This document shows positions 1 through 10,327 of a DNA stretch of 10,467 bases, piece after piece. Positions within the stretch are counted from its first letter, which is position 1. Every line of letters begins with the position of its first letter. This stretch comes from Fidelibacterota bacterium (GTDB taxonomy: Bacteria > Fidelibacterota > Marinisomatia > Marinisomatales > JABMOV01): NCBI GenBank assembly GCA_046861395.1, contig JBHHUC010000065.1, forward strand, positions 1 through 10,467. The letters run 5' to 3'. The notes beneath the pieces were generated by a model that was not told the origin of the DNA, ran no database searches, and was given only the letters and a program-made list of their open reading frames with translations. Position numbers and translations under genes: made by a program.

Positions 1-37
1 GATCTACTTGGGACTTCAGTACATACACATATATCAT
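1..37 (-). CDS. Second copy of the small GIY-YIG nuclease gene, 5' part only (truncated by window edge)
   Basis: Nucleotides 1-37 are identical to 322-358 and encode MIYVYVLKSQVD from an ATG at 37. Confidence 0.8.
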   Translation of the reverse strand, partial: MIYVYVLKSQVD

Positions 38-38
38 G

Positions 39-102
39 CGGAGGGGGAGGGATTTTGTCGAAGACATTCCTTCGGAAGAACCCCCGGTCCGCGCAAACGG
101 AC
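39..102 (-). pseudogene. Duplicated 3' half of tRNA-Ser(TGA) (variable arm, T arm, acceptor 3' strand) with a 22-nt insertion in the T loop
   Basis: 39-55 matches 360-376 and 78-102 matches 377-401 exactly. The extra sequence tgtcgaagacattccttcggaa occupies 56-77. There is no D arm or anticodon arm. Confidence 0.9.
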
Positions 103-103
103 C

Positions 104-358
104 TTACCACAGACCTTTTTCCGTAAGAAATTCCCGTAACCACTGATTGCCTTTTCCGTGTTTGAGGTAGGTTTCTCTTTTTATTGCCTCAGAGCGGGAG
201 TGAAATATTTCGGTATAGATCAGAGAGTAGGGCCGATGCGCTTTGGTAGAGCGAACTTTCCCATTATTGTGTGCTCGTAGTCTGTCTGAGAGTGATTGCG
301 TTTGTCCAATGTAGTGGAAATGATCTACTTGGGACTTCAGTACATACACATATATCAT
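104..358 (-). CDS. Small stand-alone GIY-YIG nuclease family protein, 84 aa
   Basis: MIYVYVL...HYIGQT...DRLRAHN...EAIKRE carries the YVY/YIG motif pair and the conserved Arg, His and Glu. The start is moved from 403 to the ATG at 358 because the upstream part overlaps the tRNA. Confidence 0.9.
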   Translation of the reverse strand: MIYVYVLKSQVDHFHYIGQTQSLSDRLRAHNNGKVRSTKAHRPYSLIYTEIFHSRSEAIKRETYLKHGKGNQWLREFLTEKGLW

Positions 359-359
359 G

Positions 360-446
360 CGGAGGGGGAGGGATTTGAACCCCCGGTCCGCGCAAACGGA
401 CAACGGTTTTCAAGACCGCCGCATTAAGCCGCTCTGCCACCCCTCC
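360..446 (-). tRNA. tRNA-Ser, anticodon TGA
   Basis: Reverse complement reads GGAGGGGTGGCAGAGCGGCTTAATGCG-GCGGT CT TGA AA ACCGT, long variable arm, GGTTCAAATCC T arm, CCCCTCC-G. CCA is not encoded. Confidence 0.96.
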
Positions 447-459
447 TGCAAGTTACGGG

Positions 460-546
460 CGGAGAGGGCGGGATTCGAACCCGCGATACGCGTAAACGTA
501 TACACGCTTTCCAAGCGTGCGCCTTCAGCCGCTCGGCCACCTCTCC
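460..546 (-). tRNA. tRNA-Ser, anticodon GGA
   Basis: Reverse complement reads GGAGAGGTGGCCGAGCGGCTGAAGGCG-CACGC TT GGA AA GCGTG, long variable arm, GGTTCGAATCC T arm, CCTCTCC-G. CCA is not encoded. Confidence 0.96.
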
Positions 547-581
547 AGATTATGTTAAAAAGCCAGAATGAATAGTTGTAA

Positions 582-887
582 TTAAGCGGCGGGACTTTCT
601 TCTTCCGTCTCCGGTTCGGCCGCGACGGCTTCCGGTTGTTCGGCAGTTTCTTCCCTTTCTTCGGTGTCAAAAACAGGCATTTCTATATCCAGCGCATTGG
701 CTTCATTATCCATCCGCTGTAAGGCCTGATCCAGGGTTTCTCCTCCCACCAGACGAACCATAGATTCATTAAAACGCCAGTGACCGGTTTTTTCCGATTT
801 CACACTTTTAACGTATTTGACAAATTTGATTTCAACGTGGTCCTTGCCCTTGACTTTTCCGGCAAATCCGACAGTTTTTCGTGCCAT
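582..887 (-). CDS. DUF4295 / ribosomal protein bL38-like protein with an acidic C-terminal extension, 101 aa
   Basis: The Lys-rich N-terminus MARKTV...KYVKSVKSEKTGHWRFNESMV resembles, from memory, the DUF4295 pattern MAKKTV...KMVKSPKTGAYxF. There is a GAGGAG RBS at 899-904, and the gene lies directly upstream of two tRNAs. Confidence 0.65.
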   Translation of the reverse strand: MARKTVGFAGKVKGKDHVEIKFVKYVKSVKSEKTGHWRFNESMVRLVGGETLDQALQRMDNEANALDIEMPVFDTEEREETAEQPEAVAAEPETEEESPAA

Positions 888-913
888 TGTAATTTTTTCT
901 CCTCAAAATTTGC

Positions 914-947
914 CGGCGAATTTACCCTTATATGTGCATCACTCCAA
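914..947 (-). promoter_or_regulatory. Putative sigma70 promoter for the bL38-like/tRNA-Ser transcript
   Basis: Minus strand reads TTGGAG (947-942), 17 nt, TAAATT (924-919), then a GC-rich discriminator CGCCG. The same TAAATTCGCCG precedes tRNA-Arg. Confidence 0.55.
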
Positions 948-1050
948 TGGGATTAAAGACGAATTCTGTTCAATTTACATTCCGGATCTGGGTTCTTTGG
1001 CGGCAGAGTTTATCCCTGTAATCCGGTTCTGTTCCCTGCTAATTTTACCT

Positions 1051-2544
1051 ATGCATAATGATTCCGTTCGAGTTCGTTTCGCGCCCAGCCCCACCGGAGA
1101 TTTTCATGTCGGCGGAGCCCGCACCGCCTTATTCAACTATGTATTTGCCCGTCGTCATCAAGGTTCGTTTATTCTTCGCATTGAGGATACGGACCGCAAA
1201 CGATTCAATCCGGATGCCCTGGACTGGTTACTAAATGGGTTGCGATATCTGGGAATGGAGTGGGATGAAGGACCGGAAGTGGGCGGCGAATACGGACCTT
1301 ATATTCAATCTCAACGACATGAGATTTATCACGAAAAAATCGCTATTTTACTGAAACATGATAAAGCATACGCCTGTTTCTGTACCTCGGAACGGTTGGA
1401 GGCGCTGCGGGAAGATCAGAAACTCCGGAAACAGGATATCGGATATGATGGACATTGCCGACGGTTGTCCCTGGCGGAAGCAGAGAGGCGAATTGAGGCC
1501 GGAGAATATCATGTAATTCGTGCCAAACTCCCGGAAAACGGTACGGTGATGATTCAGGATGAAATCCGCGGAGAGATTACATTCGATTATGGACGTATGC
1601 AGGATGCCGTGTTGCTGAAAGCAGATGGAACACCGACCTATCATTTCGCCAATGTCGTCGATGATCATTTAATGGCAATAACGCACATCCTGCGCGGAGA
1701 TGAATGGGTCAATAGTCTGCCACTGCATCATTTCCTGTATTCAGCCTTTGGCTGGGATCCACCCTTGTTTGTCCATCTTCCTGTCATTCTAAATCCCACG
1801 GGAAAGGGGAAAATGAGTAAACGGGCCCAACGGGCTCCGGACGGATCGGAATATCCGGTCTTTGTGCGGCAATTTCAGGAAGCCGGATATTTACCGGAAG
1901 CATTGGTGAATTTTCTGGCTCTGCTGGGGTGGAGCTATGATGACCACACGGAATTCATGACGATTGACGAAATCATTAGACGATTTTCCCTGGAACGGAT
2001 TTCACCGTCACCGGCGGCTTTTGATTATGAAAAATTGCGGGCCATGAACGGACATTATATTCGTTCCTTGTCTATGGATGATCTGGCCCGGCGAATAATC
2101 CCCTTCCTTGAAAAAGCCGGTTTACCTGCCGATCAACAGAAAGTGGAAGCATTGCTCCCCTTGGTTCAGGAAAGAATGTTTACCCTCGCGGAGAGTGCGG
2201 GACAGCTGGATATTTTCCTTCAGGAAAAATTGGCGCCCTACGATCCGGCGATTTTATTGCCCAAACGAACCGGCCCGGAGGATACGGTTGCGGTCCTGGA
2301 AAAAGTATCATCTGTTTTGCAGGGTGTCCAATTTGACGAAGAAAATATCGAAGGGGCCTTAAGACGGCTGGTGGAAGATATGGGTCTGAAAGCAGGCGTT
2401 GTTTTTCAGCCAATACGCTGTGCCGTTTGCGGTCGTAAGAATGCTCCGCCCTTGTTTGCCACTCTGGCGGCCATGGGACGGGAAAAAGTCTTGCAACGGT
2501 TGGCGGCGGCTATCACGTTATTAACGGAATGGAATGATAATTAA
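1051..2544 (+). CDS. gltX: Glutamate--tRNA ligase
   Basis: [17 protein letters not shown] (HIGH motif), LRIEDTD, CFC...[14 protein letters not shown] and KMSKR. The start is set at ATG 1051 because the track's extension from 817 overlaps the opposite-strand gene and promoter. Confidence 0.96.
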
Positions 2545-2545
2545 T

Positions 2546-4228
2546 ATGACGGAAAAAGATTCAGATACATCCAAAACGCGACACTTTATTGATGCCATAA
2601 TTCAGGAAGATCTGGCATCCGGGAAGCATACGTCCATCGCCACCCGGTTCCCTCCCGAACCCAATGGCTATCTCCATATCGGTCACGCGATATCCATCTG
2701 TATGAATTTTGGATTGGCCGAACAATACGGCGGAACCTGTAATTTGCGTTTTGACGACACCAACCCGGTGAAGGAAGAAGACGAATATGTCGATGCCATC
2801 AAGGAAGACGTGCGTTGGCTGGGTTATGATTGGGGCGACCGACTGTACTTCGCGTCAGACTATTTCGAACGAATGTACAACTTGGCACTGGATCTGATAA
2901 AAAAAAGGAAAGCCTATGTATGCGATCTGACGCCGGACCAGATTCGGGATTATCGCGGTACACTGACAAAACCGGGGAAGGAGAGTCCTTACCGCAACCG
3001 GTCGGTGGAAGAAAATCTTGATCTTTTCATTCGCATGAAGAATGGAGAATTTCCGGACGGCAGTCGTACTCTCCGGGCTAAGATTGATATGCAGGCTTCC
3101 AATCTCAACTTGCGTGATCCCATTATTTATCGCATTCTCCATGCTCCCCACCACAGAACAGGAGATACTTGGTGCATTTATCCCATGTATGATTGGGCTC
3201 ACGGACTTGAAGATTCGATCGAAAAAATCACTCATTCACTCTGTACGCTGGAATTCGAAGATCATCGACCCCTGTATGATTGGTTCCTGGAGCAATTGGA
3301 CGTATACCATCCCCGGCAAATTGAATTTGCCCGTTTGAATGTGAGTTATACCGTCACCAGCAAACGTAAACTCGTGCAGTTGGTGAATGAGGGCATTGTT
3401 CAGGGCTGGGATGATCCCCGCTTGCCCACCATTATCGGTATGCGCCGTCGCGGGTATCCGCCGGAGGCCATTCGTTTGTTTTCAGACAAGGTGGGCATTG
3501 CCAAGCGGGACTCCATCACCGATATGGCTTTATTGGAATATTGTGTACGAGATGTTCTCAATCGCACGGTGCGCCGGGTGATGGGTGTATTGAATCCACT
3601 CAAAGTGGTCATTACCAATTATCCTGAGAAGGAGATCGAATACCTGGAAGCCATTAACAGCCCGGAAGATTCGAATATGGGCACACGTCAGGTCCCGTTT
3701 GCAAGGGAAATATATATTGAACGGGAAGATTTTATGGAAGACCCGCCGCGGAAATATTTCCGACTTGCGCCGGGACGTGAAGTCCGGCTCCGCTATGCTT
3801 ATTTCATCACCTGTGAAGAAGTGGTAAAGGATGAGCAAGGAAATATCCTGGAGCTGCACTGTACCTATGACCCGGCCACACGTGGCGGATCTGCACCGGA
3901 TGGACGAAAAGTGAAAGGAACAATTCACTGGGTGGCCGGTCCCACAGCCTGCCGGGCCACAGTGCGGTTATACGATCGGCTGTTTACGGTTGAACAACCA
4001 GGCTCCGGGGGAGAGGACTTCCGGGACAATATTCATCCGGAATCACTGGTTGTATTGCAGGATTGTCTGGTGGAACCGGAAGTGAAGACGTTTGCGCCGG
4101 AAACCCGCTTCCAGTTTGAACGAAAAGGGTATTTTTGCATTGATCGCAGGGACAGCACACCGGAGTCTCTTGTCATTAATCGAACTGTAACCTTACGTGA
4201 TACTTGGTCCCGGAAGGCGCGATCGTAA
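2546..4228 (+). CDS. glnS: Glutamine--tRNA ligase
   Basis: [71 protein letters not shown] and FQFERKGYF. An alternative start exists at 2534. Confidence 0.97.
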
Positions 4229-7882: not shown

Positions 7883-7911
7883 TTGTGAAATATTTTCCGT
7901 TGCTGTAATTT
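7883..7911 (+). promoter_or_regulatory. Putative sigma70 promoter upstream of selenoprotein 1
   Basis: TTGTGA (7883-7888), 17 nt, TAATTT (7906-7911) in an AT-rich intergenic gap. Confidence 0.35.
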
Positions 7912-7933
7912 GTCTGAGAAATTGGGGAACATT

Positions 7934-9409
7934 ATGAAAAAAACACTTTTGGCCGGTATCCTATTGGCAGGCGTGATTACGGCCCAGACCTATAATGTGG
8001 GTGACGTGGTGGCCAATTTTTCCGAAGCTATTTGCGCCAACGGAACAGGAGACTGGGTTCTGGATAATTATAATGGTGATCTCAATGGCGGTGATTACCA
8101 TGTGATTTGGATTAACCTGTTCACATCTTGGTGACCAAGCTGTCAATCGGAGGCTCCGATTACAGAAGGAATTTATCAGACTTATGCCGATCAGGGTTTA
8201 GTCATGGTGGCGGCCGGATTCGACTGGAATCAACCGTACAGTTGCGAAAGCTGGGCTCAAACTTTTGGTTTAAGTTATCCCATTACCGACGATGAATCCA
8301 ATCTGGTCTGGAATATGTTCGGTCAGGGGTATATTCCGCACAATGTTATTCTGGATCACAATTTTGAAGTATTGTACTCCGAAGCCGGATTCAGCCAGGG
8401 AACCATCATTGCGACGATTGAAGCGGCCCTTGCCAATCTGCCGGCAGATTTGGATGGGGACGGTATCCTCAATGATCTGGATAATTGTCCGGAAATCTAC
8501 AATCCTGATCAGGCCGATTTGGACAACGATGATATCGGTGACCTGTGTGATCCCTGTGATAATGCGAATGTCTTTGTCGCCGGGAATGTAACCGGGGATG
8601 TAACGGATGACGGGCCGGTTCTGGATGTTTTTGATGTCCTGACGCTGGTCGATCTGATCCTGGATAATGATTTCCCCGGCTGTACGGGAGAATCAGCCAA
8701 TTTCAACGGCGATAATTTTATTAATGTGCTGGATGTCGTTCAATTGGCCCAATACGTTACCGGTCTATATGGTCGCTATGCCCCCGTGGAACTATCCCAG
8801 GCGACGGTCACCATTGCCCGGGATGAAACTAAATCATCGCTTCTTATTGAGAGTCAAACAGGCATAGCAGGGTTCCAATTGGAAGTCAAAGGTCAGGAAC
8901 CAGCGTTTAACGGAATTTCCGATGCGAATCTTCCGGAGACCTGGATTCTTGATTACCGACAGGATGAAAATTCGCTTCAGATCCTGGGCGTGGATTTGAG
9001 TATGACGCAATTGACTCAATCCATTACGATTGGGATTTCCGGGGCCGAATCTGTTGGTCAAATCATCATCAGCGACCGGAATGGTAATGAAATTCCCGTT
9101 ACGATTAATACATCGGCGAACGGGCGACCCATTGAACTCCCGGCAGACGTTCGCTTGAATGAATTGTATCCCAATCCTTTTAATCCGGTAGTTTCGGTTC
9201 CTTTTTCCCTGCCGTTCCAAACGGATGTTACCATAGCCGTTTATAATCTGAATGGGCAGTTGGTGGATATCCTCCTTCAAGCCCAGGATATGGTAAGTGG
9301 TTTTCATGAAGTCCGGTGGGATGCCTCACGCCAGGCATCGGGAGTGTATATTGTTCAGATACAGACCCAACAGGGAATTGACACACAAAAGGCTTACCTC
9401 TTGAAATAA
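7934..9409 (+). CDS. Exported thioredoxin-fold (AhpC/TSA-redoxin-like) selenoprotein, 491 aa with Sec67, plus thrombospondin type 3-like, dockerin-like and T9SS/FlgD-type C-terminal domains
   Basis: ORFs 7910-8134 and 8204-9409 are in frame and separated only by TGA 8132-8134. Readthrough gives [16 protein letters not shown]. Signal peptide [23 protein letters not shown]...DNCP...DQAD repeat (about 8447-8560), dockerin-like motifs (about 8582-8764) and YPNPFNP at 9167. Confidence 0.88.
8141..8164 (+). promoter_or_regulatory. Putative bacterial SECIS hairpin, gene 1
   Basis: TGT-C-AATCGGA-GGC-TCCGATT-ACA, with 17 nt between the TGA and a G-starting loop. Confidence 0.75.
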
Positions 9410-9425: not shown

Positions 9426-9457
9426 AAAAAAAGCCCGGAATTTCCGGGCTTTTTTTT
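9426..9457. terminator. Intrinsic terminator, probably bidirectional
   Basis: AAAAAAAGCCCGGAA-T-TTCCGGGCTTTTTTTT perfect inverted repeat, 16 nt after the stop at 9409. Confidence 0.9.
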
Positions 9458-9517: not shown

Positions 9518-10327
9518 ATGATGAGAATGATAAGAAACCTGATCGGATTAATCCTTTTCTTCGGTGTCATGAGTGGGCAACCATACGTGGTCGGGGACGT
9601 TGTGGCGGATTTTCAGCAAACAATTTGTGAAAACGGCAATGGATCCTGGTCGCTTTATAACAGTACGGGGTTTGACGGTAACAGCAGCGGCCGCATTACA
9701 CTACTCATTTTTTTTGCTTCTTGGTGAATTACCTGTCAATCGGAGGCTCCGATTTTGGAAGGAATGCAACAACAATATGGCAATCAGGGGTTACAGGTTA
9801 TATCGTTGGGATCACAATGGAATCAGCCATATTCCTGTACATCCTGGGCCACGACGTTTGGTCTCACTTTTCCGATCCTGGACGATGATTCCTATTCGGT
9901 AGGCAGTCTTTTCAGCGTCAACGGTGTTCCGTTTACCGTTATCATCGATCATACCATGGTTTTACGTTACCGAGCTCTGGGCTTTAACCAAAGTGTCGTG
10001 GTGGCTACCATTGAAGATTTGTTGACCGAATTGGATGTATCCGAATCTGCGAGCGTGTTGTCTGAGAATTTCTCTCTCCGTCCAGCCTACCCCAATCCAT
10101 TTAATGCCAGTGTGACCATTCCCTTTACATTAACCCGGGAGGAGGATATGAGCGTCACCGTTCATGACATAACCGGTCGGGTCGTTGCCACTCTGGCGAA
10201 GGGGATGATGCCGGCCGGGGAACATGTCATACGGTGGTCACCTGTGGTGAGATCCACCGGTATTTACTTTATTTCCGTGGCATCCGGGACCCAGCATCTG
10301 GTATATAAGATAGTTCAGGTAAAATAA
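9518..10327 (+). CDS. Exported thioredoxin-fold selenoprotein, about 269 aa, with a T9SS/FlgD-type C-terminal domain; paralogue of 7934-9409
   Basis: ORFs 9518-9727 and 9755-10327 are in frame across TGA 9725-9727, giving LIFFASW-U-ITCQSEAP. Signal peptide present, WNQPYSC shared with gene 1, and YPNPFNA at 10088. The start could be 9518, 9521 or 9527. Confidence 0.87.
9734..9754 (+). promoter_or_regulatory. Putative bacterial SECIS hairpin, gene 2
   Basis: AATCGGA-GGC-TCCGATT at the same offset from the TGA as in gene 1. The 22 nt at 9733-9754 are identical to 8140-8161. Confidence 0.75.

Follow-up and report, generated by a model that had tools for sequence, protein, structure and literature searches.

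A mobile 22-nt double mini-hairpin carried in GIY-YIG nuclease cassettes at tRNA-Ser genes

A 22-nt insert (termed plug) in a displaced tRNA-Ser fragment is one copy of a real, covarying, mobile family of double mini-hairpins, and it is also a constant part of a nuclease cassette borne by tRNA-Ser genes. It has the look of a signal or cargo belonging to a small selfish DNA system lodged at tRNA-Ser. There are reports of mobile repeats of 20-30 nt for which no mobilising enzyme is known, and in the accessible text on SMRs their mobilisation is called enigmatic (PMC3119063). The covarying 22-nt family described here has a candidate enzyme, a target rule and a clade-specific pairing, making the question testable with one small protein and a few oligonucleotides.

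The tRNA-Ser locus and its insert

The window, i.e. the whole stretch of 10,467 nucleotides that was analyzed, is one complete contig of a 2.37-Mb assembly and begins at a contig end. The features around the insert are collected in Table 1. The displaced tRNA-Ser fragment (positions 102-38) corresponds to the last 43 bases of tRNA-Ser(TGA) and begins 1 base past the nuclease stop codon, while the nuclease ATG abuts the 3' end of the intact tRNA-Ser(TGA) gene (358/359), an arrangement in which tRNA processing could yield a leaderless nuclease mRNA. Since positions 1-55 and 78-102 repeat positions 322-376 and 377-401 with 100% identity, the 22 nt are the sole difference from the tRNA-Ser(TGA) gene at 359-446, as the first-pass annotation of this DNA had stated. 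The insertion register at TTC^AAAT is fixed, no sliding being possible. The same annotation had offered destruction of a target site as one role for the insert, a proposal weakened by the fact that the working tRNA gene, at a distance of 299 bp, still has the identical target uninterrupted.

Table 1 Features of the tRNA-Ser locus in the window.
Feature	Positions	Strand	Basis or remark
22-nt double mini-hairpin insert (plug)	56..77	.	in T-loop TTC^AAAT of the displaced tRNA-Ser fragment, without target duplication
Half A: C-G-closed 4-bp stem, GAA loop on + strand	56..66	+	sequence
Half B: C-G-closed 4-bp stem, GAA loop on - strand (the tRNA-sense strand)	67..77	-	
Displaced tRNA-Ser(TGA) fragment, part 1: variable arm, 5' T stem, TTC	78..102	-	100% identical to 377-401
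Displaced tRNA-Ser(TGA) fragment, part 2: remaining T loop, 3' T stem, 3' acceptor strand	38..55	-	100% identical to 359-376
84-aa single-domain GIY-YIG nuclease gene	104..358	-	PF01541, E 5.6e-16
Intact tRNA-Ser(TGA) gene; empty target site between 377 and 376	359..446	-	
tRNA-Ser(GGA) gene, upstream; insert-free, unduplicated	457..547	-	
Further copy of the nuclease gene, first 12 codons, truncated by the contig end	1..37	-	within the 55-base assembly overlap
Tandem unit, one 321-bp period: nuclease gene and plugged tRNA fragment	1..321	-	

The first 55 bases of the window are the assembler's 55-base overlap, of which 38 contig ends of this assembly show an example. Because of this overlap at the contig start and because the 321-bp unit loops in the assembly graph, the tandem copy number is not fixed by the assembly. 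Four DNA sequencing runs from a single sample contain 0.89-0.96 of the words, but they may be the source of the assembly and so are not independent; other sequencing runs hold small word shares that provide no evidence, and the RNA runs hold 0.05.

The insert reads TGTC-GAA-GACA at 56-66 and TTCC-TTC-GGAA at 67-77, the latter being TTCC-GAA-GGAA on the minus strand. The two 4-bp hairpins abut and each strand receives one C-GAA-G loop, so the back-to-back arrangement described in the first-pass annotation is exactly what the positions contain. GNA mini-hairpins are unusually stable in DNA, the nucleic acid for which the accessible text describes them (PMC13037366). In a nearest-neighbour DNA model, the linear 22-mer folds preferentially into an alternative single hairpin with the GAA and TTC loops paired (-3.1/-3.5 kcal/mol), and under the same model the circular 22-mer folds into an 8-bp duplex with both loops as caps. 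Among the 21 cassette plugs detected (see below), the loops are exactly complementary in just 2 and non-complementary in 19; because the stems covary and the loops are mostly non-complementary, we prefer the double-hairpin form over the single hairpin of the model. No Rfam match was obtained over 56-77 at E<=1, and seven related loci gave tRNA matches only.

Elsewhere in the window, two adjacent ORFs (817-4228) are glutamyl- and glutaminyl-tRNA synthetase-like and carry HIGH/KMSK-type motifs. Two thioredoxin-like secreted-protein genes (7910-9409 and 9518-10327) are each split after a UxxC-like position: both ORFs stop at TGA, after "...FTSW" and "...FASW", and then continue in frame. A tRNA-SeC is present in the assembly, and the reading frames suggest selenocysteine read-through in both split genes. 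Between them, a 15-bp inverted repeat (9426-9456), perfect and with runs of A and of T, is likely a bidirectional terminator.

A covarying family and its insertion sites

The exact 22-mer occurs once in this assembly. Any two abutting hairpins with 4-bp stems and 3-nt loops occur 45 times in its 2.37 Mb, and the strict pattern with C-G closing pairs and N-N-A / T-N-N loops occurs twice, in the window and at C5:245, with 0 occurrences in the reversed assembly. The second family member (C5:245-266) has AAA and TTC loops and lies at a YTN^NA site; the gene downstream of it seems to be a decayed transposase.

In other genomes, the exact 22-mer was found in two copies in one titled Neomarinimicrobiota, both within IS3 transposase genes whose separate flanks match rve_3 (Pfam), and once on a metagenome contig. 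With up to 2 mismatches it occurs at 13 places in 9 of the 401 genomes of the phylum, this assembly included (reversed control, 0), and variants of the first stem have C-G in place of T-A, a compensatory change. Relaxing the pattern produced 114 strand-hits, spread over 18 of 201 genomes, versus 7 in the control; one of the loci (L036) may be a chance hit. The matches listed include at least 93 distinct family copies of 22(-25) nt with at most two mispairs, at least 60 of them perfect. Within these matches, the two stem positions that the pattern leaves free are paired at 58 of 68 places (shuffled mean 11.3, maximum 22), a count in which places are not independent events since many copies in genome G058 ride within a larger repeat; by distinct sequence, again among the matches listed, 29 of 39 are paired (shuffles 5.5, maximum 14). 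The stems covary beside GIY-YIG homologues too. The halves mix freely, with 22 module pairings in 69 copies, and the half A module of the window (GAA, 56..66) recurs in 14 free-copy halves, both counts again referring to the matches listed. Loop counts from free copies found by pattern are biased by the search pattern, and loop variation was therefore judged on the cassette plugs instead.

Free copies lie in genes and in spacers, in either orientation. The gmd gene is interrupted cleanly, its flanks covering Pfam positions 33-79 and 81-132, and in two GxxExxY genes the flanks abut on an intact homologue. A paired-BLAST test for split genes confirmed 2 of 87 sites at its thresholds, and the gmd and IS3 cases were confirmed by Pfam on the separate flanks. 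Among the matches listed, a 4-nt target duplication was seen at 0 of 60 sites and a 2-nt duplication at 5 of 60 (control 10%). The target is symmetric: at the 57 non-tRNA sites among these matches, YN^NR is found 45 times, TN^NA 29 times and YTN^NAR 14 times, compared with 24%, 10% and 2.6% at shifted control positions. The T-loop insertion site obeys the YN^NR rule. No tetranucleotide tag was seen in the flanks of the 60 sites among the matches listed, which show the YN^NR preference alone. Targeting of hairpin loops was considered as the main rule and set aside in favor of the sequence rule, as 10 of 60 sites among the matches listed lie in a stem of at least 5 bp, versus 8% in the control.

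Nested copies occur at seven loci (L096, L097, L099, L137, L146, L147 and L302), with entry two bases into the second hairpin; some nested forms are common to several loci and hence may be inherited. At another locus (L037) the loop of a GTAG-type palindrome houses a family copy; this palindrome resembles REP. No neighbor gene is common to the free copies: in a set of 80 of the 82 listed ORFs nearest to them (the window's own ORF and one near-duplicate removed), the most frequent type, PDDEXK_3/GxxExxY, occurs 5 times. Among the matches listed, a gene for this nuclease lies within the 1.5-kb flank of just 3 of the 93 family copies. The viral contigs searched had no match to the 22-mer family, to the nuclease, or to the plugged T loop.

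The first-pass annotation had argued that the insert is neither a random indel nor a simple misassembly, and this is borne out, as the insert behaves as a tiny mobile element. It had also proposed a tiny REP-like insert; mobility was retained from that proposal, whereas a classical REP was not, given that no GTAG/CGTC tag flanks the insert and no Y1/RAYT transposase was found in the assembly.

The nuclease clade and its tRNA-Ser cassettes

The nuclease is an 84-aa protein with PF01541 as its only domain and no extra DNA-binding domain. It matches the UPF0213 structures 1ywl/1zg2 (E 2e-5), and its Atlas model (pTM 0.90) matches GIY-YIG clusters. GIY-YIG enzymes are hydrolytic and unable to join DNA themselves. 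Homologues were present in 28 of the 41 genomes of the first set, this assembly included, and most of them adjoin a tRNA or tmRNA gene, together with a tRNA piece that is duplicated and bears a hairpin. In a tree of 77 proteins over 84 columns (a single short row was omitted, and 32 of the 74 inner branches are open), the window protein falls in a clade of 20 proteins from 7 families with a support of 87, or of 95 in a tree that also holds NTS-flanked proteins. Residues Y5, Y16, G18, R26, H30, and E62, presumably the catalytic residues of the GIY-YIG fold, are invariant in all 20 members. Phages yielded only distant homologues, the best with 45% identity over 76% of the protein, and the plasmid collection yielded none.

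All 20 clade proteins are encoded at tRNA-Ser genes, spanning four anticodons. In 19 of these 20 cassettes a dead tRNA copy contains a double mini-hairpin, placed in its T loop or its anticodon loop, versus 2 of the 57 other homologues; the expectation that similar double hairpins lie near homologous GIY-YIG genes was thus confirmed. Fifteen of the 19 were identified by a strict detector and the others by eye, three being nested (L137, L146, and L147) and one degenerate (L143). One locus, L006, carries a half-decayed double mini-hairpin. Of the 21 detected plugs, 16 are 22 nt long; 16 lie at TTC^RA and 5 at the anticodon-loop site TTG^AA. Their outer stems are Watson-Crick paired at 120 of 126 positions with variable loops: GAA accounts for 11 of the 42 loops, so that it is not the conserved feature suggested by the first-pass annotation, while GNA accounts for 19 and loops ending in A for 36. 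Loops differ even among copies of one array (L300; G180:C7:24300-26900), where three plugs have identical stems and different loops and where the loop bases may mutate fast. The working tRNA gene of every cassette keeps an identical unplugged site. At several loci (L135/L300, L139, L147, and L075) a full-length plugged tRNA gene lies next to an intact copy. In the single-contig genome G067, a four-copy array with copies 692 bp apart carries a nuclease of another clade.

Other clades at tRNA-Ser bear other hairpin families, with 3 label changes among 23 Ser-linked rows; since kin share labels, the tree is evidence for joint travel of plug and gene, not for their co-evolution. A second plug family of 31-40 nt, which begins with CCTGCC or CCAGCC, uses the same TTC^GA site and is tied to two other nuclease branches (L005, L007, L008, L010, L012, L032, L080, and L148). 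In fragments of tRNA-Gly, -Pro, and -Asp, the place of the T or anticodon arm is taken by a hairpin of a third family, TCCCGA...TCGGGA, which often follows CGTC as in SRM repeats (L013, L015, L016, L020, L025-L028, L086, L153, and L157). Across these loci the hairpin family follows the clade of the nuclease, which would fit a recognition mark.

In this assembly, five further GIY-YIG loci with other hairpins lie at tRNA or tmRNA genes or fragments: C66:1-431 (tRNA-Gly), C77:1-400 (tmRNA), C31:1790-2114 (tRNA fragment), C68:3225-4080 (tRNA-Ser(GCT)) and C4:58-455 (tRNA-Met). Four of them have a duplicated 3' piece and three end in the 55-base assembly loop. At the contig ends of C83, C109, and C110, fragments of tRNA-Leu and tRNA-Lys that carry hairpin inserts stand in tandem, and no nuclease gene is visible there. 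The tRNA-borne cassettes account for a common cause of broken assemblies and of false tRNA fragments at tRNA genes.

Candidate mechanisms and known systems

As best explanation, to which we give an even chance, the two hairpins serve in cis as the signal for a single-strand nuclease of Ssn type, and its cuts lead to duplication and, occasionally, to insertion at ectopic sites. This nuclease would bind the hairpin on single-stranded DNA and nick nearby in the manner of SsnA, and one purine-loop hairpin per strand would make either strand a substrate. Repair by recombination between the tRNA repeats would duplicate and spread the unit formed by tRNA piece, plug, and gene, as with SegB cuts; only orders that keep one unplugged tRNA would survive, and rare repair on 2-3 matching bases would drop the 22-mer alone at an ectopic site. 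According to the accessible text of the respective studies, SsnA cuts ssDNA at hairpin repeats that flank its own gene (PMC11893778), and SegB, through its nuclease activity, causes a phage tRNA locus to amplify in tandem (PMC13096335). The clade-wide siting at tRNA-Ser, the 19 of 20 plugged cassettes, the clade-specific hairpins and the Watson-Crick stems with free loops support the cis signal, as do the two tRNA loops hit within one clade, the real arrays, the plugged full-length tRNAs beside intact ones, the five other GIY-YIG loci at tRNA/tmRNA, and the failure to find a Y1 transposase in the assembly. On the other hand, the 36 pattern hits in genome G058 go with a best homologue at just 40%, a homologue at 52% or more is present in 8 of the 30 genomes that gave no strict-pattern hit, the nuclease gene is near so few of the free copies, and the protein falls outside the NTS-flanked branch. 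Genome-level co-occurrence of free copies with the nuclease clade gave no clean signal, and the clustering of plug labels on the tree is equally expected from plain co-inheritance. If the nuclease does read hairpins, the Ssn principle would extend to a second, abundant clade of uncharacterised GIY-YIG proteins, a source of new single-strand-specific nucleases.

The main rival, a tentative possibility, is that the 22-mer is an independent SDR/SMR-like mini-element, moved in trans (e.g. by a Y1 HUH transposase), and that the cassette just happens to carry one; the T loop with TTC^RA would be an ideal target, and inserts would persist only in dead tRNA copies. This would suit the 90 of 93 copies, among the matches listed, that have no nuclease gene nearby, and the target rule from the 57 non-tRNA sites in those matches already predicts the T-loop site. 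Plugged tRNA fragments seen without a nuclease gene (C83, C109, and C110) and the use of one TTC^GA site by different hairpin families point the same way, and PF01797 is present in 15 of 16 chosen relatives. However, PF01797 has 0 matches in this 94%-complete assembly and is found in 0 of the 80 genes nearest to free copies. An independent element also leaves unexplained why 19 of 20 cassettes of one clade carry one family and other clades carry other families, and why stems are conserved with free loops inside dead tRNA copies. Conversely, the 84-aa nuclease and host repair alone might mobilise the element, either as a dumbbell or as end caps, with a cognate hairpin cargo for each clade and tRNA genes as home sites, which we regard as unlikely. 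The element would move as a nicked DNA dumbbell (a circular 22-mer whose 8-bp duplex is capped by both loops), or two 11-nt mini-hairpin caps would be added to both 3' ends of a YN^NR break and then joined; the capping route would account for the symmetric target, the absent duplication, and the free mixing of halves. Mobilisation by the nuclease would amount to transposition without a transposase, for one of the smallest mobile DNAs.

The insert does split a fixed site, and the target is symmetric, as would suit an immunity plug, where a homing endonuclease cuts the unplugged T loop of tRNA-Ser and the insert destroys the site in the cassette's own copy; SegB is implicated, in the accessible text, in cutting tRNA-containing DNA (PMC13096335). 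We nevertheless find such immunity quite improbable, because each cassette retains the identical site, unplugged, in its working gene, the protein has 84 aa and no extra DNA-binding domain, any insert would destroy the site, so that the conservation of the stems is unexplained, and so are free copies in unrelated genes. Still more doubtful, and in our estimate very improbable, is a device acting on RNA, in which the plug blocks folding or processing of the duplicated tRNA piece and so tunes nuclease expression. It would agree with the nuclease ATG directly after the tRNA end and with plugs located in tRNA loops, but one purine loop per strand is a two-strand symmetry of DNA type, the accessible account of GNA mini-hairpins concerns DNA (PMC13037366), and free copies are found in genes and spacers alike, pointing either way. 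An assembly artefact at the contig end is barely credible: the insert lies one base inside the 55-base overlap of a looping contig end, yet the exact 22-mer recurs in two other assemblies in unrelated contexts, and the same plug type occurs in the tRNA-Ser copies of 18 other cassettes, many of them far from contig ends.

The 22-mer family has the features of very small mobile repeats, i.e. it is non-coding, shorter than 30 nt, precise and duplication-free in its insertion, and shows compensatory changes and nesting. In these features it resembles the Nostoc SDR repeats (cited in PMC5861425 and PMC3116915, as far as their accessible text goes). Elhai et al. in 2008 reportedly described SDR1-8 as repeats of 21-27 nt with nesting and a common structure. 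Both are mobile repeats of about 22 nt with a target preference, nested insertion, and a structure kept by compensatory change; the SDRs belong to another phylum and have no known nuclease partner. One Nostoc plasmid, a small sample, held 0 double mini-hairpins of the window type. With REP/REPIN elements, in the accessible part of Bertels and Rainey 2011 (PMC3116915), the element shares two inverted hairpin units and a non-autonomous nature, but REPINs have a spacer and lie beside a Y1 transposase, whereas the halves here abut, without spacer or tag. SMRs, in the accessible text, likewise lack a target duplication and insert into other mobile elements and palindromes; they measure 80-110 bp, in contrast to 22 nt here (PMC3119063). 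The make-up of two stem-loops recalls the double-hairpin elements of fungal mitochondria. Those are non-coding and mobile as well, but organellar, longer, and GC-rich.

For the cassette as a whole, the literature searched (largely open-access) did not describe any small GIY-YIG gene accompanied by hairpin-plugged tRNA copies, although the Ssn supplements could list such proteins. SegB offers a likeness, as a GIY-YIG gene beside the tRNA genes of T-even phages with tandem repeats of tRNA and nuclease that arise through cutting and recombination, at least in the accessible text (PMC13096335); the window system differs in being chromosomal, with a single domain of 84 aa and hairpin-plugged dead tRNA copies. 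It differs from Seg-type homing endonucleases in that the unplugged T-loop site, taken as the putative cut site, persists beside the gene. A further parallel is Ssn (cd10448), where the accessible text describes a small single-domain GIY-YIG gene flanked by its own hairpin repeat, which is dispersed in the genome (PMC11893778), and a repeat family paired with an enzyme lineage (Chenal et al. 2025, PMC11893778). The Ssn repeat is given there as a 28-nt, CGTC-tagged single hairpin, compared with our 22-nt abutting pair of 4-bp hairpins, and the flanks of the window gene are tRNA sequence and double hairpin rather than CGTC-type NTS/SRM, the SRM definition in that text being degenerate. Here the gene is lodged at tRNA genes with duplicated pieces, and the repeat is seen inserting cleanly into genes. 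The window protein shares about 30% identity with three NTS-flanked proteins, does not have their C-terminal motif and sits on another branch: the NTS-flanked proteins form a branch of their own (99*), separate from the window clade (95*), with 19-25 identical residues over 63-79 columns, a placement made by a tree with 3 NTS-flanked proteins from 80 of 133 viral loci. Our best reading is that the nuclease would function like Ssn/NTS while not being a member of that group.
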